Positions 2,810 through 23,541 of a DNA stretch of 32,000 nt are shown here, one piece after another. The first letter of the stretch is position 1; each line of letters begins with the position of its first letter. The position numbers and the translations under genes are program-made. The DNA is from Candidatus Saccharimonadota bacterium (GTDB taxonomy: Archaea; Nanohalarchaeota; Nanosalinia; Nanosalinales; Nanosalinaceae). Below the pieces are notes generated by a model. It had not been told where the DNA came from. It saw only the letters and a program-made list of their open reading frames with translations, and ran no database searches. Location of the stretch: assembly GCF_029232205.1 (NCBI RefSeq), contig NZ_CP107255.1, forward strand, positions 210,001 through 242,000. Reading direction: 5' to 3'.

Positions 2810-2817
2810 TTTAAAAA
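2810..2817 (+). promoter_or_regulatory. TATA box for a leaderless arsR-merA transcript
   Basis: tttaaaaa is centred about 26-27 nt upstream of the ATG at 2840, the spacing expected for an archaeal leaderless mRNA. Confidence 0.45.
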
Positions 2818-2839: not shown

Positions 2840-3166
2840 ATGGATTATAATTCATATAGCAAATTTTTCAACGCATTAGCCAGCGAAAACAGACTGAAAA
2901 TACTCGACATACTCAGAGAACAGGACAGAACAGTATCCGAAATATCAGAAATAGCTGCCGTTGAACAAAGCTCGGTCTCACATCACCTTCGATGCCTCAG
3001 GAACTGCGGATTTGTCCAGAGAAAAGTTGACGGCAACAAAAGAATCTATACTATCAATTCAGAAGCGGTGGAAAAACTTTTCTCAGGCGTAGAAGAACAC
3101 ATCGAGAACCATGAAAACGGCATCTATACCTGTGAAATACTCAAAGACGAACGAGGAGAACAATGA
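2840..3166 (+). CDS. ArsR/SmtB-family metal-responsive transcription regulator (probable mer regulator)
   Basis: ENRLKILDILREQDRTVSEISEIAAVEQSSVSHHLRCLRNCGFV is a canonical ArsR wHTH. Cys residues include C-x3-C (CLRNC) and a C-terminal C. 4-nt overlap with merA. Confidence 0.9.
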   Translation: MDYNSYSKFFNALASENRLKILDILREQDRTVSEISEIAAVEQSSVSHHLRCLRNCGFVQRKVDGNKRIYTINSEAVEKLFSGVEEHIENHENGIYTCEILKDERGEQ

Positions 3167-4626
3167 TGACTGACTACGACCTAATCATAGTAGGTGGCGG
3201 TGCAGCAGCCTTTGCAGCCGCCAACAAAGCCAACCAACTCGAAAAACAAACTTTGATGATAAACGACCCCCACGATCTTCCTCTCGGGGGAACCTGCGTA
3301 AATGTCGGCTGCGTCCCCTCAAAGACGCTACTACATCAAGGAGAGGAAAACTACTACCCGAAAAACTCAGATTTCCGAGCTATCAACCTCGAAGGAAACG
3401 CAGACCTCGTAGAAGCAATCGAAGAAACCAACGAAATGGTTGACGGATTCAGGGAAGGAAACTACGAGAAAGTAATCGATAAACAAGACTATGTAGACCT
3501 TGTAGATGGCAGAGCCAAGTTCAAAGATGAGAATACAGTAGAAGTAAACGGCGAAAAATACTCCGCAGACCGATTCCTGATAGCCACAGGAGCATCCACA
3601 TTTGAACCACCGATCGATGGCATAGAAGAAGTGGATTATCTCACGAACGAATCAGTCCTAGAGCTTGACTACCAGCCCGAGAGAGTGGTTGTTATTGGTG
3701 GCGGACCGCTTGGACTCGAATGGAGCCAGATATTCCACCACTTCGACATAGAAGTAGTAGTTCTCGAAAGAAACGACAGATTCCTCCAAAGAGAAGACCC
3801 GCTAATCTCTGAGGAGATAGAGAAACATCTCAGCAACGAAGGAATAGAAATGCACTCCTCAGCAGAAACACAAAAAGTCCAAGAAGAAAACGGACAGAAA
3901 ATCATAGAAGCAGAGATAGATGGCGAAAAACAGGTCTTCAAAGCAGACGAAATCTTTTTAGCAACAGGCATCGACCCAAACACAGACGACCTGAACACGG
4001 AAGAAGCAGGAATAGAAACAGATGACAGAGGTTTCGTAGAGATAAACAATCGGATGGAGACCTCTCAGAACCATATCTATGCTGCAGGCGATGTAACAGG
4101 AGAACTTCCTCTGGAGACTGTAGCAGCCAAGCAAGGAAGTTTCGCAGCCCAGAATATGTTCGAAGACTCGACGGAATCAGAGGATTCCGCTCGATCGAGC
4201 GAACATGAAAGTTCGCCGAGTGCAGTGAAGGAGATTAATTACGATGAAATACCTCACGCCGTTTTTACATCTCCACAAGTTGCCTCAGTAGGTATGACCG
4301 AGCAGGAATATATGGAGGAGTATGATACCTGTCTATGTTCTGCTGTAAGGATGGACCAGGTGGAGAAGGCGGAGGCTATCAAAGACACCAGGGGAATTGC
4401 TCGGATGGTTATCGACCACGAAACAGAAGAAGTCCTCGGATTCCATATAGTAGGACCGATGTCAGCCGATATAATTACCACAGCAACCTACGCAGTCAAA
4501 AACCAGATGACTATAGACGAAATCAGAGACACAACCCATATCTTCCCAACTCTAAGCGAAGTCGTGAAAAAAGCAGCACAGAGCTTCGACGCCGACCTCG
4601 ACGAAATGGCCTGCTGCGTGGAGTGA
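3163..4626 (+). CDS. merA: Mercuric reductase (MerA core, no N-terminal HMA/NmerA domain)
   Basis: FAD-binding motif IIVGGGAAAFAAA, redox-active disulfide GGTCVNVGCVPSK, second Rossmann motif VVIGGGPLGLE. The C-terminal vicinal Cys pair (..EMACCVE) distinguishes MerA from other pyridine-nucleotide disulfide oxidoreductases. Confidence 0.85.
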   Translation: MMTDYDLIIVGGGAAAFAAANKANQLEKQTLMINDPHDLPLGGTCVNVGCVPSKTLLHQGEENYYPKNSDFRAINLEGNADLVEAIEETNEMVDGFREGNYEKVIDKQDYVDLVDGRAKFKDENTVEVNGEKYSADRFLIATGASTFEPPIDGIEEVDYLTNESVLELDYQPERVVVIGGGPLGLEWSQIFHHFDIEVVVLERNDRFLQREDPLISEEIEKHLSNEGIEMHSSAETQKVQEENGQKIIEAEIDGEKQVFKADEIFLATGIDPNTDDLNTEEAGIETDDRGFVEINNRMETSQNHIYAAGDVTGELPLETVAAKQGSFAAQNMFEDSTESEDSARSSEHESSPSAVKEINYDEIPHAVFTSPQVASVGMTEQEYMEEYDTCLCSAVRMDQVEKAEAIKDTRGIARMVIDHETEEVLGFHIVGPMSADIITTATYAVKNQMTIDEIRDTTHIFPTLSEVVKKAAQSFDADLDEMACCVE

Positions 4627-4630
4627 TAGT

Positions 4631-5758
4631 ATGACAGAGCACAAATGCGAGAAATGCGGTAAGACATTCGACTCAGAAAAAGCACTCGAACAACACCAAG
4701 AAGATTATGACCACAGCAAAGAGAAAGAAGACGATAAAGGTCTGAAGGAAAGGATAATGACCTCGAACTACACAGGCTTAGCAATAATAGGCATACTCCT
4801 CGTAGGTCTTACAGTAGGAGGATACTACGCCCTGAGTCCTTCAAACACATCTGCTGGTGATGGATACAGTCATTCACATACTGCTGAGATAGGCAGCCAA
4901 GCACCTGATTCTTCGTTCACTACAGTCAACGGCGAAGAATTCAAGCTCTCCAAATACAGCGGAGAGAAAAGAATGATATGGCTTTACGCAACCTGGTGTC
5001 CAAGCTGTTACAAAGGAGCACAAGTCCTCCAAGCCCGAAACGAACAACTCAAGGATATGAAGATAATCGCCTTGAAAACGAAAGGAAACGCAGGATACTC
5101 AGGACCATCAACACAGCAGTTCGCCGATAAATACGCACCAGAAACCCTGAACAAAGAGAACTGGGTCTGGGGAAAGGCTTCACAGGAACTAACCAACATC
5201 TATAACCCTCAGAACACTCCTGATATAATCTGGCTGGTAAAACCTAACGGAGAGATTTACGCCAAGACAGCAGCACCAGCAGCACGAATCAACCAGATAA
5301 CAAGGTTCGCCCAGAAAAACTTCAACAACACAGAAGAAATCAGCCTCGGAAAAGAAGTAGAAATAATGGGCAGAAACCACATTTCAACAGGCGAACAGGT
5401 CAACAACTACAACTCCAATCCTCCAACATCAGGACCTCACTACCAGAGACCAGCAGAAACAGGGTTCTACAGCAAGAAACTGCCTGACGAAAGACTTGTC
5501 CACAACATCGAACACGGACAAATCTGGATAAGCTACAACAACATCACTTCAGAAACCAGGAAACAGTTAGAACAACTGGCACAGAACTATCCTAAAGCCG
5601 TTATAGTGACAAAGCGTCCAGAGAACAACGCCAAGATAGCGGTAGCCTCCTGGGGAAGACTGATGGAGCTTAACAGCTACGACAAGCAAAAAGTCGTGAA
5701 ATACATCAAGGCCTACATCAACAAATCTCCAGAACCATTTGCCAAACTACCCAACTAA
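4631..5758 (+). CDS. Membrane-anchored protein: N-terminal C2H2 zinc finger, one TM, thioredoxin-like (CxxC) domain plus DUF3105-like domain
   Basis: Finger CEKCGKTFDSEKALEQHQEDYDH, TM helix (GLAIIGILLVGLTVGGYYAL), TlpA/ResA-like WLYATWCPSCYKG. The DUF3105-like segment is YNSNPPTSGPHY...LVHNIEHGQIWISY. Confidence 0.85.
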   Translation: MTEHKCEKCGKTFDSEKALEQHQEDYDHSKEKEDDKGLKERIMTSNYTGLAIIGILLVGLTVGGYYALSPSNTSAGDGYSHSHTAEIGSQAPDSSFTTVNGEEFKLSKYSGEKRMIWLYATWCPSCYKGAQVLQARNEQLKDMKIIALKTKGNAGYSGPSTQQFADKYAPETLNKENWVWGKASQELTNIYNPQNTPDIIWLVKPNGEIYAKTAAPAARINQITRFAQKNFNNTEEISLGKEVEIMGRNHISTGEQVNNYNSNPPTSGPHYQRPAETGFYSKKLPDERLVHNIEHGQIWISYNNITSETRKQLEQLAQNYPKAVIVTKRPENNAKIAVASWGRLMELNSYDKQKVVKYIKAYINKSPEPFAKLPN

Positions 5759-5773
5759 CGAGGCCAAGAAAGA

Positions 5774-6286
5774 ATGAATCGGATAAAAGAAGGATTTTCG
5801 GATTTCAGCAGGTCGGTAAAGACGGTTCTTACGGAGAGAAAGTATCAGGGCATCTTTCTCGGTGTTTTCACCCTATTCTTTACTCTCTACATTTTCACGC
5901 TTCCCGCCACCTACACAGGAGGAATAGTTGGATGGATTTCGCTCCAGTATTTGACGCCTGAGTTAGCCGTGTTTTCATTTGTGATGTCTGTTGAGACCGG
6001 TCTTATAGCATCTTTCATAGCCTACTCCTCCACACTTTCACTTGGAACAGAGCTTGAAACTTCATCAGGTATAGCAGGGAGTATACTGCCTCCATTACTT
6101 TGCTGTTCTCCACTACTACCCGCACTGGGAGCGGTCGTGGCAAGCCTGACACCTCTAGCGATTAATATAGGATATCTTCAGGGCTTGATCGCAGTTTATG
6201 AGACAGAAATTCTTCTTGGAGCAACACTGATACTTGGCTACTCCGTACTGGAAAACTCGAAAACAGTGAGAAAATGTATTAATTAA
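5774..6286 (+). CDS. Four-TM membrane protein with an intramembrane vicinal Cys pair (candidate Hg(II)/thiophilic-metal transporter)
   Basis: 170 aa, hydrophobic. PPLLCCSPLLPALG is a CC-x-P motif inside a predicted helix. It is the last gene of the arsR-merA operon. The function is inferred only. Confidence 0.6.
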   Translation: MNRIKEGFSDFSRSVKTVLTERKYQGIFLGVFTLFFTLYIFTLPATYTGGIVGWISLQYLTPELAVFSFVMSVETGLIASFIAYSSTLSLGTELETSSGIAGSILPPLLCCSPLLPALGAVVASLTPLAINIGYLQGLIAVYETEILLGATLILGYSVLENSKTVRKCIN

Positions 6287-6494
6287 GCAGCTTTTCAGAA
6301 GCTCTATATTGAGAGCGCTCTTAGCAGAGAAAAAATAAGGAGGGAAAGGCTGGTAGCAATCCTACCTATTTTTATTGTCCGCTACCCTCTGTTGTTGGTC
6401 TTCTTAGTCTCTGCTGTCTCCAATTTTCTATACATTTGCTATTATAGGTCCTGCGATGTATTTCCAGAGGAATGATAGAACAGGATTCATGTCT

Positions 6495-8813
6495 TTATTC
6501 GGCCTCGATTCGTGAAAGTCTCATTGCGTTGCCTGTTACGCCTACTGTCATTCCTGCATCTCCTATGAGAACTGCTATTGCAACTGTAACAATCTGTAGT
6601 GGAACTCCAATTGCGAGGAGAAGTTTGACGAGTAGGCTTGAGTAGATGTTCTGTCGTATCACGCCGTTTGCGGTATGGGAGAGTTTGTAGAGGTACGGTA
6701 TTTTCGAGAGGTCATCGCCCATGAGTGCGACATCTGCTGTCTCCAGTGCGGTGTCTGTTCCTGCCGCGCCCATTGCGACTCCTACAGTTGCTGTTGCGAG
6801 TGCGGGTGCATCGTTCACGCCATCGCCAACCATCGCAACGCCGTCATACTTTTCCACCAGTGACTGTATCTTCTCCACTTTTTGTTCGGGTAGAAGCTCT
6901 GCGTGGTACTCTCCGACACCTACTTGCTCAGCGATCGCTTTTCCTGTTCTCTCGTTGTCGCCTGTAAGCATCATGGTTTTGATGCCCTGTTCGTGAAGTC
7001 TTTCGATTGTTTCTGCTGCTTCTTCCCGTACTTTGTCGGCAACCGCTATTAATCCTTCTACACGATCTTCGTTTCCTACTACGATAACGGTTTTGCCCTG
7101 GCTCTGGAGTTCAGGTACTTTTTCATCGAGTAGATCCATGCAGTCGTTTCTTTCGCATAGCTCTCGGCTTTTGGAGCTGATTTCTCCAGAGGTCATGGCT
7201 GTGTGCACATGTTTGAGGTTGAATCCTTTTTCGCTGAAAAGATCGGGTTTACCGGCGTAGTGTTCTTTTCCAGCTAGTTTTGCTTTTACTCCTTTGCCTG
7301 TGATGCTTTCGAAATTCTGGATGTTCTCTGGTTCAATACCTCTGGACTGTGCTGCCTTGATGATGGCGTCTCCAAGAGGGTGTTCGCTCCGAGTTTCGAG
7401 TCCTCGGGCGCATTTCAGGACATCTTCTTCGTTCTTGCCGTTTACTGGTACTATATCGGTGACGGCAAGCTCTCCTTTTGTGAGGGTGCCTGTTTTGTCG
7501 AAGGCGATTGCCTCGATTTCTCCTGTGGCTTCTAGGTGTTTTCCACCTTTGATCAGCACACCGTTTTTCGCTGCGCTTGTGATACCGGATACGACTGTTA
7601 CAGGTGTCGATATTACGAAGGCGCATGGACATGCTAGCACGAGCATCGTGATACCGGCTAGGAACCATGTTGTCCACGACATACCGAGGAGTAGGGGCGG
7701 TACAGTAGCTGTTAAAACTGCGAGCGTTACCATGAATGGTGTGTAGTATTCGGAGAACCGTTCCACGAACTGTTCTCTCTTGGTCTGGCTTGACTCCGCA
7801 TCCTCAACCATCTGAACGATCTTCGATAATGTGTTGTCTGACGAGTCCTTAGTCACTTCTATCTCAAGGTATCCTTCCTCGTTGATCGTCCCTGCGTAGA
7901 CTTCGTCGCCTTGTTTCTTGTCCACTGGCATCGATTCTCCGGTGATCGGTGCCTGGTTGACAGCGCTTTCGCCGTCGATAACTTCTCCGTCCATTGGGAT
8001 TTTCTCGCCAGGTCTAGTTATGACGATGTCTCCGATTTTTACCTGTTCAACGGGTATCTCTGTTTCTTCTCCATCTCTCTTCACTGTGGCGGTGTCGGGT
8101 GAGAGATTCATCAGTTCGCGGAGCGAGTTCCGAGCCTTATCCATAGAGTAAGTCTCCAGTAACTCGGCTACATTGAACAGGAACACCAGGGTTGCGGCCT
8201 CGAAGTAGAGTTCGGCTCCGAACGCAAAGCTGGCTGAAACGGCGCTGAGGATTGCCGTGCTCATCAAGAAATCTATGTCTAGGTTCAGTTTTTTCGCCGA
8301 ATAATAACCGTTACGCAATATTACAGGGCTTCCTGAAGCGATCCCGGCCAGGAAAAGTATCTCGGCGATGAAGAACTCTCTGCCCAGAAATTGGGCTATC
8401 TGGAAGTCCTGTAACACCCCGAACTTGAATAAGAGGCCTGCGCCAAGGAAGATCCCTGCTATCCATGTCTTGATAGCTCTACTGCTTTTCCAGACGCTTT
8501 TTCTACCTTCTTCTTCTATGTCTCCGCCGTTACTTTGGTTATGTCCTGCTCCTTCATTATCTTTATTCTTCACACTGTAGCCTACGCTTTCTATAGCATC
8601 AATTAGTTCAAATTCGGAAATCTTTGAAGAATTGTAGTTAACTGTGACTTTTCCAACGGTTGTTAAAGCGCTATATTCGTTTATACCCTCAATATTGTCA
8701 AGTGAATTTTCTATCTTGGCGGCACAAGATGCACAGTCCATCTCAGGAACCATGAACTCGGCCTCATCTTCTTTCAAGTCCTCATCATGACTTTTGTCGT
8801 GTTCGTCACTCAT
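6495..8813 (-). CDS. Heavy-metal P1B-2-type ATPase (Zn/Cd/Pb-type)
   Basis: N-terminal HMA domain (MDCASCAAKIE), TGES, CPC motif (ACPCAFVISTP), [19 protein letters not shown]7 N-x7-K (NIYSSLLVK) and TM8 D-x-G (GDAG) match the P1B-2 signature. Confidence 0.93.
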   Translation of the reverse strand: MSDEHDKSHDEDLKEDEAEFMVPEMDCASCAAKIENSLDNIEGINEYSALTTVGKVTVNYNSSKISEFELIDAIESVGYSVKNKDNEGAGHNQSNGGDIEEEGRKSVWKSSRAIKTWIAGIFLGAGLLFKFGVLQDFQIAQFLGREFFIAEILFLAGIASGSPVILRNGYYSAKKLNLDIDFLMSTAILSAVSASFAFGAELYFEAATLVFLFNVAELLETYSMDKARNSLRELMNLSPDTATVKRDGEETEIPVEQVKIGDIVITRPGEKIPMDGEVIDGESAVNQAPITGESMPVDKKQGDEVYAGTINEEGYLEIEVTKDSSDNTLSKIVQMVEDAESSQTKREQFVERFSEYYTPFMVTLAVLTATVPPLLLGMSWTTWFLAGITMLVLACPCAFVISTPVTVVSGITSAAKNGVLIKGGKHLEATGEIEAIAFDKTGTLTKGELAVTDIVPVNGKNEEDVLKCARGLETRSEHPLGDAIIKAAQSRGIEPENIQNFESITGKGVKAKLAGKEHYAGKPDLFSEKGFNLKHVHTAMTSGEISSKSRELCERNDCMDLLDEKVPELQSQGKTVIVVGNEDRVEGLIAVADKVREEAAETIERLHEQGIKTMMLTGDNERTGKAIAEQVGVGEYHAELLPEQKVEKIQSLVEKYDGVAMVGDGVNDAPALATATVGVAMGAAGTDTALETADVALMGDDLSKIPYLYKLSHTANGVIRQNIYSSLLVKLLLAIGVPLQIVTVAIAVLIGDAGMTVGVTGNAMRLSRIEAE

Positions 8814-9108
8814 TTGCGTGATCTACACCTGACTCGATTATCTCTTCGATGTGTTTGTCGTTCATACTGTAGTATCGGTGCTTCCCGTCCTTCCTCTTTT
8901 CCACGATTCTCCTGTCATTCAGTTTTCTCAAGTGATGGGAGATGTTGGAGTTGGTCATCTCCAACTGTTCCGTCAACTCGTGGACACATTTTTCTCCTTC
9001 CGAAAGACTGAGCAGTATTTTCAGCCTGTTCTCGCTGGATAGTGCCTGAAATATTTCTGCGGTTTCTTCAAGACCTTCCCGATACATAACATTTGAACAT
9101 TTATTCAA
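8806..9108 (-). CDS. ArsR/SmtB-family regulator (CadC/CzrA-like) of the ATPase
   Basis: ENRLKILLSLSEGEKCVHELTEQLEMTNSNISHHLRKL. 8-nt overlap with the ATPase start. The true start may be the ATG at 9087 (MYREG..), about 26 nt downstream of the TATA-like tttttaaatat. Confidence 0.88.
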   Translation of the reverse strand: MNKCSNVMYREGLEETAEIFQALSSENRLKILLSLSEGEKCVHELTEQLEMTNSNISHHLRKLNDRRIVEKRKDGKHRYYSMNDKHIEEIIESGVDHANE

Positions 9109-9338: not shown

Positions 9339-9746
9339 TCATTCTGAGGCCGCACAGTGCTTACAGCAGTATATTTTCCCGTTTTCTTCGTGGCCGCCGC
9401 TGTAGATCTCACAACCACAGTTCTCACATTCTTCTATCTCGCCCTGGATTGCGGCGTTAAGAATTTCTCCGAATGCATCCAGCTGTTCCCTCACCAAGTC
9501 TTCTCCATCTTCTGTCAACTGGTAGACCTTCTTGCCCCGATCTCCTTTCTCTTCCATCGTAGCGACTCCCTTCTCCGTTAGTTTTTCCAGAAAAGGGTAG
9601 ATGTGGGAGGTTGTCGGTTTCTTGCCCGTAATTCTTTCTATGTCTTTGATTAGCTGATAGCCGTGTTTTTCTCCTGATTCGAGTAGTAAGACTGTGTAGA
9701 GCCGGTTTACATTTGATAAATCGATTTCTTCCATTTTCGAGTTCAC
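9339..9746 (-). CDS. PadR-family transcription regulator with C-terminal Cys-rich (TRASH-like) metal-binding tail
   Basis: PadR wHTH: YTVLLLESGEKHGYQLIKDIERITGKKPTTSHIYPFLEKLTEKG...KVYQLTEDG. C-terminal tail: CENCGCEIYSGGHEENGKIYCCKHCA. Confidence 0.85.
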   Translation of the reverse strand: MNSKMEEIDLSNVNRLYTVLLLESGEKHGYQLIKDIERITGKKPTTSHIYPFLEKLTEKGVATMEEKGDRGKKVYQLTEDGEDLVREQLDAFGEILNAAIQGEIEECENCGCEIYSGGHEENGKIYCCKHCAASE

Positions 9747-9767
9747 ATTTAGATAATCTCAACACAA

Positions 9768-9775
9768 TTTTATAT
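9768..9775. promoter_or_regulatory. Shared, centrally placed TATA element of the divergent PadR / DUF305 genes
   Basis: ttttatat sits 25.5 nt from the PadR ATG (9746) and 27.5 nt from the DUF305 ATG (9799) in a 52-bp intergenic region. It is embedded in the near-palindrome atatcattatat. Confidence 0.4.
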
Positions 9776-9798
9776 CATTATATGACATACCTGTTGCT

Positions 9799-10404
9799 AT
9801 GGATCAGAAAAACTCAAATCTTAGGAATAAAATTCTCTCTTGGATATCGGCTAATAGAACAAAAATTCTGATCGCGTTCGGAATACTAGTTTTTCTCGGA
9901 TTATTTGTCGCCAACAATACCTATGATGACAACAAATCTGTAAGCTCATCTGAATTCAACCGAGCCGATGTTATGTTCATGAACATGATGATCATCCACC
10001 ATGATCAGGCTATCGAAATGGCGGAGCTAGCACCTAATAGAACAGATAACGAGAATATTCTCGAACTTTCAAGAAATATTTCCAAGGCTCAGAGAGCAGA
10101 GAATGAACAGATGGCGGAATGGCTGAGAGAACTCGGCTACCAGAGGCCTAGAAACGGGCATCGAATGGCTGGAATGGCATCACAGGAACAGATGCAGAGA
10201 CTGGAAAACAGTAGCGGTAGAGAGTTTGACCGATTGTTCTCAGAATTAATGATTACACATCATAGAGGCGGTATCCAGATGGCGCAGAGCTTTATTCAGA
10301 GAGGCAGGAACCCTGAACTTATAGAAATGGAGAAAGGAATGGTTAGGGCTCAGACGGAGGAGATTGAGAAGATGAAGGAGTGGAGAAGTAACTGGACTGA
10401 GTAA
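9799..10404 (+). CDS. DUF305-family (ferritin-like four-helix) protein, membrane-anchored or secreted
   Basis: N-terminal TM or signal helix. Duplicated motif FMNMMIIHHDQAIEMA / FSELMITHHRGGIQMA is typical of DUF305, a family often found in copper-resistance loci. Confidence 0.85.
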   Translation: MDQKNSNLRNKILSWISANRTKILIAFGILVFLGLFVANNTYDDNKSVSSSEFNRADVMFMNMMIIHHDQAIEMAELAPNRTDNENILELSRNISKAQRAENEQMAEWLRELGYQRPRNGHRMAGMASQEQMQRLENSSGREFDRLFSELMITHHRGGIQMAQSFIQRGRNPELIEMEKGMVRAQTEEIEKMKEWRSNWTE

Positions 10405-10439
10405 ACCTTAAAAACAACATATCAACATGTGATATGTAA

Positions 10440-11243
10440 GTGTTTGATATGAACGATAAAATTTCATTCGATCTCTCGATAAAAAATGCGGTAGCAGTAA
10501 GCTTCATAGCCGGAATCCTTCTAGGAATAGTTGTCGGAGGTGCAGGAGCATTAACTCTTCAAAAAAGCCCACAGACAATGGAATCCACTTCTACAGATAA
10601 TCCTTCGCCCAGCCCAACAACAGGCGACACACAGCAGGACAGCAAGGATGGAGGAAACACTGTCTCTGTTGCCGACTTGACATGGGAGGATGATCCGGTA
10701 TTAGGTAGCGAGGATGCAGAAGTTACCCTTGTATGGTTCAGCGACCTGAACTGTATGTACTGTCGGCGTTTCGCCCAGAACACATTCCCACAGATCAGAG
10801 AAAACTATGTAAGCCAGGGAGATGTCCGAGTAGTGAAAAAAGATTTCATCACGATGGGAGAAAACTCTGTAACACTGGCAAAAGCCTCGCAAGCCGCATG
10901 GCAGCTAGTCGGAGAAGACAATCCAGAAGTATTCTGGACCTGGTCGGACACGATCTCAGAAAACCAGCCTGAGAGAAAGAGAAACTCCAAGAATGTAACA
11001 GAAGACATAATCTCTACAACTCAAGAAGTTGATGGGATTGACGCAGAACAGCTTCGTGAGAAGATGAAAGAGATTAGTGAAGAAGAAATAAACCAGGACA
11101 TTCAGGAAGGTAAACAGAGAGGGATTTCCGGTACACCAGGATTCCTGATCTTCAGGACAGGATCTGATGAAGCCAAGCAGATGACAGGCGCACAACCCTA
11201 CAGCAGCTTCGAATCCGAGATCAACAAACTCCTAGAGAACTAG
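10440..11243 (+). CDS. Membrane-anchored DsbA-like thiol:disulfide oxidoreductase
   Basis: N-terminal TM helix, CxxC active site (LNCMYCRRF), C-terminal GISGTPGFLIF. The ATG at 10449 is a more likely start than the GTG at 10440. Confidence 0.85.
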   Translation: MFDMNDKISFDLSIKNAVAVSFIAGILLGIVVGGAGALTLQKSPQTMESTSTDNPSPSPTTGDTQQDSKDGGNTVSVADLTWEDDPVLGSEDAEVTLVWFSDLNCMYCRRFAQNTFPQIRENYVSQGDVRVVKKDFITMGENSVTLAKASQAAWQLVGEDNPEVFWTWSDTISENQPERKRNSKNVTEDIISTTQEVDGIDAEQLREKMKEISEEEINQDIQEGKQRGISGTPGFLIFRTGSDEAKQMTGAQPYSSFESEINKLLEN

Positions 11244-11333
11244 CCTCTAGGAGACACCTATTTTTTATTTTTACACTCACCTATCACATACTGATATAAA
11301 GACTTGTGATGAATAACCAAATGTGATCTCAAA

Positions 11334-11609
11334 ATGAAACTCAAAAACAAAATTTCCATAATGCTTGTATCGCTGATTACAACCCTTTCCACAGCTGCAG
11401 CAACTCCAGGCCACGACGAAGGAACGGCCACAGGAATGATGTGGAGCGACGGAGGAAGTTGGATGCACAGTGGAGCAGGCATGATGGGGTATAACATGTG
11501 GGGTATGGGATGGTTCGGACTACTATTCGGACTCGCATTCTGGATACTAGTCATCCTTGGAATAATCTACCTATACCAACAAATCACTGAAAACGAAGGT
11601 GAAGAATAA
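11334..11609 (+). CDS. Small Met/His-rich exported, membrane-anchored protein (putative Cu(I)-binding)
   Basis: Signal-like N-terminus, segment GMMWSDGGSWMHSGAGMMGYNMWGMGW with 8 Met and 1 His, C-terminal TM helix, acidic tail. Confidence 0.65.
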   Translation: MKLKNKISIMLVSLITTLSTAAATPGHDEGTATGMMWSDGGSWMHSGAGMMGYNMWGMGWFGLLFGLAFWILVILGIIYLYQQITENEGEE

Positions 11610-11610
11610 A

Positions 11611-12003
11611 ATGAGCGAATACGGAATAACCGCCGAAGTTGAATACAGCTACTCTGAAGCCATAGAAAAGACGAAAGAAGTTCTCGCAGACCATGGCTTC
11701 GGAGTCCTATCAGAGATAGAAGTATCCGAAAAACTCAGGGAAAAGCTGGATGTAGATTTCGACGACTACATGATACTCGGAGCATGTAACCCGGAAAAAG
11801 CTTATCAAGGCTTAAAGGAAGAGCAGGAACTCGGACTTTTACTGCCCTGTAATGTAATAGTGTACCGAGAAAACGGTAAAACTTTTGTATCGGCGATAAA
11901 GGCTTCAAAAGCACTTGAAGTAGCCGGAAATGAAGATCTGGAGCCGATAGCCGAAGAAGTTGAAAAAGACCTAAAGAAAGTCATAAATGAGGTAAAACAA
12001 TAA
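11611..12003 (+). CDS. DUF302-domain protein
   Basis: HGFGVLSEIEVSEKL...DYMILGACNPEKAY...LLPCNVIVYRENG matches the DUF302 pattern. The ATG at 11611, just after the upstream stop, is preferred over the track's GTG at 11599. Confidence 0.8.
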   Translation: MSEYGITAEVEYSYSEAIEKTKEVLADHGFGVLSEIEVSEKLREKLDVDFDDYMILGACNPEKAYQGLKEEQELGLLLPCNVIVYRENGKTFVSAIKASKALEVAGNEDLEPIAEEVEKDLKKVINEVKQ

Positions 12004-12275
12004 TGGTAAGAAGCAAGAACCAGGCAGGTATAGCTCTAGGAGCACTTTTCGGACTGATGCACACTCTATGGGTTGCAGCAGTAGGAACAGGAATAGGTCA
12101 ACCTATAGTAGACGCTCTTGAATCAGGGCACTTCCTATCCTCAAACTACTCCGTTACTGCTTTTGACCCTGTAACGGCTTTAACAGGAATAATAGGGGCA
12201 GTTATAGCAGGTTATATTATTGGCTGGATATTTATCTACGTCTACAACTTTACAGATAACAAACTAGACAGCTAG
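12003..12275 (+). CDS. Small membrane protein (2-3 TM), unknown function
   Basis: 90 aa, hydrophobic. The start overlaps the DUF302 stop (TAATG), so it sits in the operon upstream of copB. Confidence 0.6.
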
Positions 12276-12297: not shown

Positions 12298-14304
12298 ATG
12301 GAACACGACCACGACGACGAAGACTCAGACCATGACTCAGGTCACGGACACAAACATCACGAAGAAATGTTCAAAAGAAAATTCTTCATCTCAACACTGC
12401 TATCAATACCGGTACTGTACTTCTCCACTTTTGTCTCAGGTCTACTTGGATATACTCCTCCGACATTTACCGGCAGTAACTTAATTGTGCCTGTCTTTTC
12501 AATCATAATTTTCGCATATGGAGGGCTGCCGTTCCTGAAGATGGCAAAGTCGGAGTTTGAAGACCGTCAACCAGGAATGATGATGCTGATCTCACTCGCC
12601 ATAACTGTCGCCTTTGTCTACAGTATGGCAGCTCTCGTCTTACCTACAGAATCAAGCTTCTTCTGGGAGCTCGTAACCTTGATCGACATCATGCTGCTCG
12701 GCCACTGGATAGAAATGCGTAGTGTTCGCCAGGCATCAGGAGCACTAGACGAACTAGCACAGCTCATGCCAGACACTACAGAAAGAATAAACGAGGACGG
12801 AACAGTCGAGGAAGTCAAGGTCTCCGAACTAGAAGAAGGCGACAAAGTTCTTGTCAGACCTGGGGCATCAATTCCAGCTGACGGAGTTGTAGTCGAAGGA
12901 GAATCAGATGTCAACGAGTCCATGATCACAGGAGAATCCAAACCTGTCAGCAAAGAGCCAGGGGACGAAGTGATCGGCGGCACAGTAAACAAGGAAGGAA
13001 GCCTGAGAGTAGAAATCACTGCTACAGGAGACGAAACCGCACTATCCGGCATCATGAAAATGGTTGAAGAAGCACAGGAATCAAAGTCGAAGACGCAGCT
13101 TCTCGCTGATAAGGCGGCCGGATGGCTTTTCTATATAGCACTGGGTTCAGGAGCCATTACTGCAGTAGCTTGGATGATAGCTGTAGGGTTTAACGTAACT
13201 GTAATTGAGAGAGTTGTAACTGTACTGGTTATTGCCTGCCCTCACGCCCTCGGTCTGGCGATACCTCTAGTAGTAGCGATTAACACTTCGATGGCTGCAA
13301 AGAACGGAATTTTAGTTAGAGACCGTATCGCTATGGAGGAATCTCGAAAGCTTGATACAATCATGTTCGACAAGACCGGAACCCTGACAAAGGGAGAGAT
13401 GGGCGTTGTAGAGATCGAGACAGACGGAATAGAAGAAGACGAAGCACTTACACTGCTCGCATCAGTAGAATCAGACTCCGAACACATAATCGCTGAAGCA
13501 ATCAGAAACTCAGCAGAAGAAAGAAACCTCAGCATCCATGACGCTGATAACTTCGAAGCAATCAAAGGAAAAGGTGTCAAAGCCGATGTAAAAGGAGAAA
13601 CTCTCTATGTCGGAGGCCCTAACCTAGCAAAGTCAGAAGGGTTCAAGATCTCCGACAAACTGAACCAGTTTGCTGAAGACGCAGCAGAAAACGCAGAAAC
13701 AGCAATCTACCTGTTTAGAGACGGAGAAGCAGTAGCAGCAGTAGGACTAGCAGATGTAATCAGAGAAGAAAGCCGTGAAGCCATCGAAAAACTCCACGAC
13801 AGAGGTATCGAAGTAGCGATGCTGACAGGAGACTCAGAAGAAGTAGCAGAAGCAGTCGCCAAAGAACTCAACATCGACACCTACTTCGCAGAAGTCCTGC
13901 CCGAAGACAAAGACAAGAAAGTCCAAGAACTACAAGACCAAGACAAAAAAGTAGCTATGGTCGGTGACGGCGTCAACGACGCACCGGCACTCACAAGAGC
14001 CGATGTAGGTATCGCAATCGGTAGCGGAACAGATGTAGCAGTCGAATCAGCGGATATTATACTCGTGCAGAACAATCCACTGGATGTTGTCAAACTGTTG
14101 AATCTCAGCGATCTAAGCTACAGCAAGATGAAACAGAACCTGTTCTGGGCCACAGGATACAACGCCTTCGCAATACCACTAGCAGCTGGAGTCGCAGCAC
14201 CAATAGGAATAATCCTATCACCAGCAGTAGGAGCAGTAGTGATGTCACTTTCCACAGTAATAGTAGCCATCAACGCACAACTGATGAAAAGAAAAGCAGT
14301 CTAA
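12298..14304 (+). CDS. copB: Copper P1B-3-type ATPase (CopB-like) with His-rich N-terminus
   Basis: N-terminal [30 protein letters not shown] motif ([11 protein letters not shown]), [19 protein letters not shown]7 GYN, TM8 MSLST. GGAGGT lies upstream. Confidence 0.92.
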
Positions 14305-23468: not shown

Positions 23469-23541
23469 TGCGGTGTCCGGGATTTGAACCCGGGTCACCG
23501 GCTTGGAAGGCCGGGGTCTTAGGCCACTGGACCAACACCGC
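23469..23541 (-). tRNA. tRNA-Gly (anticodon UCC), no encoded CCA
   Basis: Minus strand GCGGTGTTGGTCCAGTGGCCTAAGACCCCGGCCTTCCAAGCCGGTGACCCGGGTTCAAATCCCGGACACCGC(A). 7-bp acceptor stem, anticodon arm CCGGC/CTTCCAA/GCCGG, T-arm CCGGG/TTCAAAT/CCCGG. Confidence 0.9.

Follow-up and report, generated by a model that had tools for sequence, protein, structure and literature searches.

A mercury-resistance operon of a nanohaloarchaeon and its unnamed thioredoxin and membrane protein pair, linked to merA in Archaea and Bacteria

The DNA considered here, referred to as the window, is a stretch of 32,000 nucleotides (positions 210,001 to 242,000 of contig NZ_CP107255.1, assembly GCF_029232205.1) in which a nanohaloarchaeon carries a four-gene mercury-resistance operon on what is probably an integrated mobile metal island. 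The operon consists of four tightly packed open reading frames (ORFs) on the forward strand, confirmed from the ORF list and the sequence: arsR, the mercuric reductase gene merA, a gene for a membrane-anchored, exported thioredoxin-like protein of 375 residues and a gene for a membrane protein of 170 residues that we call CCmem (Table 1). The merA start codon overlaps the arsR stop codon as ATGA, the third gene begins 4 nucleotides past the merA stop and a gap of 15 nucleotides precedes the fourth. The last two genes are the main subject of this work, as they form a conserved, widely distributed and unnamed accessory pair of the mer operon that, in Archaea as in Bacteria, is linked to merA and Hg-type regulators. 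A sequence-only reading of this DNA had described the operon with its ATGA coupling and 4-nucleotide spacing, a MerA with CVNVGC and ACCVE pairs and no HMA domain, an exported CxxC thioredoxin fused to a zinc finger and to DUF3105, and a protein with four transmembrane (TM) helices and an intramembrane PLLCCSPLLP motif. The ORF list, the profile searches and the structural models presented below agree with this description of the operon, of MerA, of the domains of the thioredoxin protein and of the four-helix protein, whose cysteine pair is placed in the third helix.

Judged from its sequence, MerA is a genuine mercuric reductase lacking the NmerA domain. Membership was decided on the TIGR02053 cut-off, a CxxxxC motif, a C-terminal vicinal cysteine pair and a Phe or Tyr about 24 residues before that pair. 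The protein exceeds the curated cut-off and harbors the redox pair C45-VNVG-C50 and the C-terminal pair C484-C485 (ACCVE), and the Phe expected in archaeal MerA (PMC3466566) is supplied by the sequence IFPT. A Pfam scan gave no HMA match, the protein beginning straight at its flavin adenine dinucleotide (FAD) fold. It is the sole MerA over cut-off in the genome, which is complete in one contig of 1,046,959 bases (99.95% complete). The best matches in the searches assign the organism to Candidatus Nanohalobium.

The product of the first gene belongs to the ArsR/SmtB family. Two of its cysteines (C52-x3-C56) lie in the recognition helix and a third, C98, close to the C-terminus, and all three are conserved in the ArsR proteins encoded beside the module in nanohaloarchaeal, haloarchaeal, actinobacterial (as far as Conexibacter) and Candidate Phyla Radiation (CPR)-like loci. 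The layout of this triad is that of the thiolate site of CmtR, the Cd/Pb sensor of Mycobacterium tuberculosis, but the CmtR equivalog model NF047906 scores the protein at 36.6 bits, far under the cut-off of 150. A literature search on the ligands of CmtR brought up nothing relevant. The view that ArsR-family regulation of mer is known from Sulfolobus finds its confirmation in the literature, where ArsR-type control of merA is documented in both Sulfolobus solfataricus and Streptomyces lividans (PMC3466566); as there, an ArsR/SmtB fold lies here beside merA, and its control of the operon is putative.

Table 1. Features of the operon, of the surrounding island and of compared loci (positions in the window, or in a numbered locus where one is given)
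Feature	Position	Strand	Basis or remark
TTTAAAAA, TATA-box-like element	2810..2817	+	23-30 nucleotides upstream of arsR ATG; read directly
ArsR/SmtB-family metalloregulator, 108 residues	2840..3166	+	HTH_5 (PF01022) 63.5 bits, cut-off 22; NF033788 84.8 bits, cut-off 55; both above cut-off
Mercuric reductase MerA, 487 residues	3163..4626	+	TIGR02053 506.9 bits, cut-off 454.45
C2H2 finger/TM/thioredoxin/DUF3105 protein, 375 residues, membrane-anchored, exported	4631..5758	+	Pfam, AlphaFold2, Foldseek
Cytoplasmic C2H2 finger (C6, C9, H22, H28)	4631-4720	+	
Inferred TM anchor	about 4769-4837	+	one hydrophobic stretch; model poorly defined, residues 35-81 below 50 in predicted local distance difference test (pLDDT)
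ResA/TlpA-like thioredoxin domain, W-C123-P-S-C126	about 4883-5320	+	Redoxin/AhpC-TSA; Cys codons 4997-4999 and 5006-5008
DUF3105 domain (PF11303)	about 5378-5737	+	107.2 bits, cut-off 25
CCmem, four-TM membrane protein of unnamed family, 170 residues	5774..6286	+	hydropathy, alignments, merA linkage; CC codons 6101-6106, C168 codon 6275-6277
Stem-loop then T-run	6352..6366	+	66 nucleotides past CCmem stop; consensus scan, not above shuffled expectation
P1B ATPase and ArsR-family regulator	6495-9108	-	ATPase TIGR01512 over cut-off
PadR regulator to small unannotated ORFs	9339-12275		
Second P-type ATPase	12298-14304		no HMA domain
Toprim + MCM-like protein, 1059 residues	17081-20260	-	
tRNA-Gly(TCC)	23469-23541	-	
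MerR-family regulators preceding thioredoxin-CCmem	L098:3179-3667, L127:3709-4167, L157:3683-4120		Hg-MerR best model
Tn3-family mer transposon	L163:1033-8555		
Reversed-order fusion locus	L010:2005-4263		Bipolaricaulia-labelled genome
ORFs between MerA and thioredoxin-DUF3105	L004:7203-8810		no family match
Methyltransferase, CMAS-type	L008:2224-3327		
Methyltransferase, generic	L017:8734-9372		
Methyltransferase, UbiE-type	L098:5003-5671	-	

The 375-residue protein was modelled by AlphaFold2 (AF2) with a pLDDT of 85.3. Its thioredoxin domain scores over the cut-offs of AhpC-TSA (36.2 bits) and Redoxin (31.6 bits) and is aligned by Foldseek with ResA at E 8.6e-9 and TMt 0.76, with further matches to TlpA-like and DsbE-like proteins. 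Since the ResA and TlpA equivalog models fall far below their cut-offs, it belongs to the ResA/TlpA/DsbE class and not to those named orthologue groups. The DUF3105 domain exhibits conserved histidines and no cysteine, and may therefore bind a different metal; a protein atlas search with this part returned nothing beyond DUF3105 itself.

CCmem is predicted to consist of four long hydrophobic helices with both termini in the cytoplasm (column-averaged hydropathy and positive-inside rule). The third helix, entering from the cytoplasm, bears the vicinal pair in PPLLC110C111SPLLP, and a further cysteine, C168, lies in the cytoplasmic C-terminal tail. The protein has no match in Pfam or NCBIfam even at E 10, a profile search of the sequences of solved structures found nothing at E <= 10 and the protein atlas returned solely unnamed clusters. 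Relatives are nevertheless numerous: a word-based search retrieved 121, none with a Pfam domain and all bearing source names that are 'hypothetical protein' or clearly spurious, and a profile search of 1.84 billion representatives recovered 243 clusters at E <= 0.001. Invariant in the alignments are Y39, L43, T48 (within LPATYTGG), C110, C111, P116, Q136, A140 and E143. Among 216 near-full-length members, 206 present the vicinal pair followed by Ser or Thr and then Pro, and at least one cysteine occurs in the cytoplasmic tail of 193 of these 206; the tail has at least two cysteines in 90 members and a second vicinal pair, as in MerF, in 23 of the 206. Two natural fusions among the representative matches (P0137 and P0234) carry a MerF-like two-helix module at the N-terminus of CCmem, giving predicted six-helix proteins. 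The fused module has CC-x-G-P-F in its first helix, to which P0137 adds an Arg-rich stretch and then A-C-C-E-P, which is the MerF layout, and our own MerF model matches the module part of P0137 (independent E-value 3e-4). A dedicated search for longer fused forms of CCmem yielded none, a negative of little weight.

The distribution of the pair was analysed in 106 CCmem loci, 26 from species-representative genomes (labelled Nanohaloarchaea, Halobacteria, CPR, Proteobacteria, Bipolaricaulia and Conexibacter/Solirubrobacterales) and 80 from metagenome contigs, which collapsed into 79 clusters at 90% CCmem identity. Together they span Nanohaloarchaea, Halobacteria, CPR bacteria, Proteobacteria and Actinobacteria. 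Neighbouring genes were located by tblastn with the window proteins, MerT and MerF, MerA-like matches being checked for the C-terminal cysteine pair, and a cluster counted as informative for MerA when MerA was seen or when at least 3 kb were available on both sides. MerA lies within 4.5 kb of CCmem in 51 of the 59 informative clusters (86%): 47 have a full MerA with CVN(V/I)GC and the C-terminal pair, four a partial one at a contig edge, and in eight there is no MerA. In 65 of 73 informative clusters CCmem has a thioredoxin-like partner gene with W-C-(P/S)-S-C, directly adjacent in 61 and fused through DUF3105 in four. At least ten gene orders were encountered (Trx designating the thioredoxin-like gene): ArsR-MerA-Trx-CCmem, Trx-CCmem-MerA, CCmem-Trx-MerA, MerA-CCmem-Trx, Trx-CCmem-MerF-MerA, MerA-MerF-Trx-CCmem, MerT...MerA-Trx-CCmem, MerA divergent from ArsR-...-CCmem-Trx, MerT-MerA-...-CCmem and MerR-Trx-CCmem. 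The linkage to merA is found with both ArsR- and MerR-type regulators, and its survival through so much rearrangement points to function rather than to shared ancestry of one block.

The co-occurrence with merA that the sequence-only reading proposed to test is thus strongly borne out for CCmem and for the thioredoxin domain. DUF3105, by contrast, accompanies CCmem in just 5 of the 79 clusters, four from halophilic archaea and one from a metagenome-assembled genome (MAG) labelled Bipolaricaulia. Where the N-termini were read, the C2H2 finger follows the same pattern. In organisms other than halophilic archaea CCmem is partnered by a simple thioredoxin-like protein with a signal anchor or lipobox and a length of about 185 residues, the Bipolaricaulia-labelled MAG being the sole exception seen. 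DUF3105 and the zinc finger are accordingly lineage-specific additions, mostly of halophilic archaea, outside the conserved core. The fusion order DUF3105-thioredoxin also occurs, and one relative bears a SCO1/SenC domain. In the Bipolaricaulia MAG, the zinc finger, DUF3105 and the thioredoxin follow each other in an order reversed with respect to the window, then come CCmem and a second redoxin of AhpC/TSA type.

At the level of whole genomes, CCmem was found in 5 of 70 Nanohaloarchaeota and a true MerA in 2 of 70, both of which have CCmem and the thioredoxin gene in the MerA locus. Among 301 Halobacteria, 40 encode MerA and two encode CCmem, in both cases within 3 kb of MerA. When plasmids were searched by tblastn, bacterial CCmem gave nothing and the window CCmem matched three haloarchaeal plasmids only. 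On one plasmid locus the RefSeq labels read merB-merA, divergent from ArsR, a hypothetical gene, a 'DUF3105 domain-containing protein' and a 'hypothetical protein'.

Of the known Hg(II) carriers, MerT, MerC and MerF are absent from the whole genome at E <= 1, and no separate HMA (MerP-like) protein occurs among the scanned ORFs of the window, to which the search for MerP was confined. The earlier statement that none of the four is visible here is therefore correct within these scopes. The further claim that the pair stands in place of MerT and MerP fits this genome and the archaeal and CPR loci. It does not extend to 17 clusters in which MerT and/or MerF occur in the same locus, nor to the fusions of MerF-like modules with CCmem, which together make the pair an additional mer component and not strictly a substitute. 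In 8 of these 17 clusters, CCmem is found with MerT and MerA and no thioredoxin gene was detected, which argues for a role of CCmem independent of the thioredoxin. One of the 17 clusters is a Tn3-family mer transposon on metagenome contigs (L163; also L161, L162 and L164-L168). It starts with merT and merA, continues with a MerD-like gene, an ORF of 131 residues of unknown nature and the CCmem homologue, and then has a DDE_Tnp_Tn3 transposase; no thioredoxin gene was detected in it.

The regulators of loci devoid of MerA add to this picture. The gene upstream was scanned in three of the eight MerA-less clusters (L098, L127 and L157), and in each of them the gene directly preceding the thioredoxin-CCmem pair belongs to the MerR family with the Hg-type MerR as best model; the L157 protein, at 168 bits, is the only one of the three above the cut-off of 150.85. 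The pair hence stays tied to mercury even without a nearby MerA. Altogether, we are confident that it represents a true Hg-linked module.

The relation of CCmem to known families was further assessed with hhalign profiles built from 21 MerT sequences (the alignment leaving aside loci L057 and L058 of genomes G215 and G113), 6 MerF and 19 nanohaloarchaeal CcdA sequences of the searched genomes. Against MerT and MerF combined, CCmem reached a probability of 25% (E 7.7e-4) in an alignment spanning the CC helix, the helix after it and the cysteine of the tail, against MerF alone 14.6% (E 0.0019, CC helix only), against MerT alone 2% (E 0.024) and against CcdA 0.9% (E 0.059), whereas the control of MerT with MerF gave 93% (E 3.3e-7). 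In a single member of the family, the Pfam MerT model weakly matches the CC helix (E 0.008). The resemblance to the CC-x-x-P pair of MerT and MerF proposed from the sequence is consequently real in motif and topology but undetected as homology: the likeness of CCmem to these proteins is one of motif, topology and context.

Several assignments could be set aside, while the comparison with MerF gives a mixed picture. A MerT should match its profile and have three helices, with CC in the first and a cytoplasmic cysteine pair between helices 2 and 3; CCmem does not match PF02411 at E 10 and has four helices with CC in the third. A MerF should match its profile and have two helices, with CC-x-x-P in the first and a CC pair in the C-terminal tail; CCmem has no Pfam match to PF11431, although its last two helices and tail cysteine adopt the MerF layout. 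There is no match to MerC (PF03203). MerH of Mycobacterium marinum pMM23, an annotated Hg(II) transporter of 171 residues, is similar in size, in its place right after merA in an ArsR-regulated actinobacterial operon and in having CC in a membrane helix, but its pair lies in the first helix, it has a weak MerC-like match and the hhalign probability is 2.3% with low-complexity residues aligned only; the two are unrelated. The TM domain of CcdA/DsbD (PF02683) is likewise rejected, with no Pfam match, an hhalign probability below 1% and the four helices and vicinal pair of CCmem.

Compared with MerT, MerP and MerF, the pair shares the neighbourhood of merA, a vicinal cysteine pair followed by proline in a helix entering from the cytoplasm, a second cytoplasmic thiol site, an exported dithiol partner and a weak profile similarity in the same register. 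It differs by the invariant motifs LPATYTGG and QG..A.YE, by its co-occurrence with MerT or MerF themselves and by the nature of the partner, a thioredoxin fold (W-C-x-S-C) where MerP is a ferredoxin-like HMA fold (GMTCxxC). With CcdA/DsbD and ResA/TlpA/CcmG it has in common a cysteine-bearing polytopic membrane protein adjoining an anchored ResA-like thioredoxin, and intramembrane cysteines flanked by prolines. However, CcdA/DsbD has six helices with one cysteine each in helices 1 and 4, no similarity in sequence or profile exists, and CCmem occurs in the company of merA and Hg regulators rather than of genes for cytochrome c maturation.

We favour, with a probability of about 0.5, a role of the pair as a relay for the capture and import of Hg(II), a proposal built on sequence and gene context. 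The surface-anchored thioredoxin domain would capture Hg(II) on its W-C-P-S-C dithiol as a functional analogue of MerP, and would pass it by ligand exchange to the vicinal cysteines in the third helix of CCmem, the counterpart of the CC pair in the first helix of MerT and MerF. From there the ion may move onto the cysteine of the cytoplasmic tail and reach the C-terminal pair of MerA, where it would be reduced with NAD(P)H to volatile Hg(0), while the ArsR repressor would release the promoter upon binding Hg(II) at its three-cysteine site. This import relay is favoured because the vicinal-dithiol anatomy matches that of Hg(II) carriers, because CCmem sits with MerT and MerA where no thioredoxin gene was detected and is fused elsewhere to MerF-like modules, and because the genome offers no other candidate carrier.

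Several observations weigh against import. No MerA lies near CCmem in eight of the 59 informative clusters, and none reaches the cut-off in three CCmem-bearing MAGs of nanohaloarchaea (87-94% complete), which speaks against an importer because import without a reductase should be harmful; some of the MerA-less loci moreover adjoin P1B efflux ATPases. The pair occurs in only about 5% of haloarchaeal merA genomes, so that MerA plainly works without it. Homology between CCmem and MerT/MerF is possible but not established, given the 25% probability and the lack of a Pfam match for the window protein, and TM segments inflate such scores. Confidence in the AF2 model of CCmem (pLDDT 79.7, predicted TM-score 0.72) drops to its lowest right around the CC helix (pLDDT 52-60). 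Fold searches with this model returned generic helical bundles and no specific match, the best reaching E 1.1 with Foldseek and Z 7.7 with VIA-align, and are uninformative in either direction. Finally, the thioredoxin domain resembles the reductive ResA/TlpA/CcmG class, whose members are normally redox enzymes fed by a membrane partner.

This last point leads to the main alternative, in which CCmem would be an analogue of CcdA/DsbD passing reductant to the exported thioredoxin, which would maintain surface cysteines in the reduced state or remove Hg(II) bound to them, thereby protecting the envelope rather than importing the metal. Both the sequence and the fold of the thioredoxin domain suit such a relay, as the genes of such thioredoxins classically neighbour that of the membrane protein supplying them with electrons (ResA-CcdA, CcmG-DsbD). 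The genome has no CcdA/DsbD transmembrane domain, which leaves CCmem as the sole candidate donor, and thiol proteins, DsbA-like ones included, abound on the island. The persistence of the pair without MerA, in eight clusters and in MAGs, sometimes beside efflux ATPases, also suits protection better than import. The architecture of CCmem is harder to reconcile with electron transfer, since known transmembrane thiol-disulfide carriers use cysteines on different helices and a vicinal disulfide is strained; the cysteine or CC pair of the cytoplasmic tail mirrors MerT/MerF rather than CcdA, and the profile comparison with CcdA gives a probability of just 0.9%. A dedicated donor should not tolerate the eight mer-operon clusters in which CCmem has no detected thioredoxin, and the fusions found join CCmem to MerF-like modules, not to thioredoxins. 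We consider this redox relay unlikely, though a serious contender. A mixed model, with CCmem both receiving Hg(II) and keeping its partner reduced, is possible.

Less probable still is a general module for the handling or sensing of soft metals (Cu(I), Cd(II), Pb(II), Ag(I) and Hg(II)), which it might, for instance, sequester at the surface or hand over to efflux pumps, its place in mer operons reflecting shared mobile islands. It could account for the CmtR-like layout of the ArsR cysteines, though the NF047906 score given above is far below its cut-off. It also agrees with the P1B ATPases, cupredoxins and DsbA-like genes near the pair in the window and in several MerA-less loci, and with the fusion to a histidine-bearing DUF3105 in halophiles or, in one relative, to SCO1/SenC. 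Yet 86% of informative loci have MerA within 4.5 kb, in varied gene orders, the Hg-specific model was the best one for the MerR-type regulators scanned at loci devoid of MerA, and the bacterial loci collected showed no comparable linkage to copper or cadmium genes. That the two genes merely hitch-hike with merA on mobile DNA, as the integrated element with its Toprim-MCM gene and tRNA-Gly and the homologue in a Tn3-family mer transposon might suggest, is very improbable in view of a linkage that holds across domains of life, in varied gene orders, with translational coupling and with regulators of two families, of the invariant cysteines and of the fusions with MerF-like modules.

Reviews of mer operons list MerT, MerP, MerC, MerF, MerE and MerH as Hg(II) handling proteins (PMC3466566). 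Archaeal mer operons are stated to lack known transporters (Boyd and Barkay; PMC3466566), and ArsR-type regulators anticorrelate with the known Hg(II) handling proteins, ArsR-type mer operons lacking known transporters (PMC3466566). The genes of the pair are absent from reviews of mer gene diversity and from Pfam, NCBIfam and RefSeq annotation as named families, and full-text literature searches, whose coverage excluded subscription journals, found no description of them. It is an even bet that CCmem and its thioredoxin partner constitute an unrecognised class of Hg(II) uptake system, with no detectable sequence relation to MerT/MerP and spread by mobile elements through Archaea, CPR, Proteobacteria and Actinobacteria. 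If true, the pair would supply the transport step lacking in archaeal and other ArsR-regulated mer operons without a transporter of the MerT, MerP, MerC or MerF type, and the role of extracellular mercury receptor would fall to a thioredoxin fold instead of an HMA fold. Should it transport or buffer Hg(II), it would add a component to a textbook resistance system, allow mercury resistance to be predicted better from genomes and metagenomes, those of tiny symbionts and CPR bacteria among them, and reveal a new thioredoxin-fold/vicinal-dithiol chemistry for metal hand-off.

Some minor features of the compared loci and of the window deserve mention. In the other MerA-bearing nanohaloarchaeal genome (L004), three ORFs of 289, 73 and 190 residues separate MerA from the thioredoxin-DUF3105 gene; a kinship with the upstream DUF63 and ZnF203 genes of the window was considered and rejected, as comparison shows them unrelated. 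Loci L127 and L129 carry P1B ATPases with HMA domains. Genes for methyltransferases dependent on S-adenosylmethionine adjoin the thioredoxin-CCmem pair in three loci (L008, L017 and L098), all without MerA in the available flank.

At the borders of the operon, the element TTTAAAAA is a plausible candidate for the archaeal TATA box of a leaderless operon transcript by its agreement with archaeal promoter geometry, and the stem-loop downstream of CCmem may possibly mark the operon end. The RNA runs consulted contained just 5-6% of the sampled sequence words. The window as a whole is a metal and thiol island with cupredoxins, DsbA-like proteins, DUF305, DUF302 and two P-type ATPases. Abutting the mer operon is a second metal module, formed by a convergent P1B ATPase with one HMA domain, which best fits the Cd/Zn/Pb/Hg type, and its own ArsR-family regulator. 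Next come the gene of a PadR regulator whose tail is rich in cysteines, genes for DUF305, DsbA-like and DUF302 proteins, some small ORFs lacking annotation and then the second P-type ATPase. Further on, the Toprim + MCM-like protein and the tRNA-Gly gene are consistent with a location of the metal genes on an integrated mobile element.

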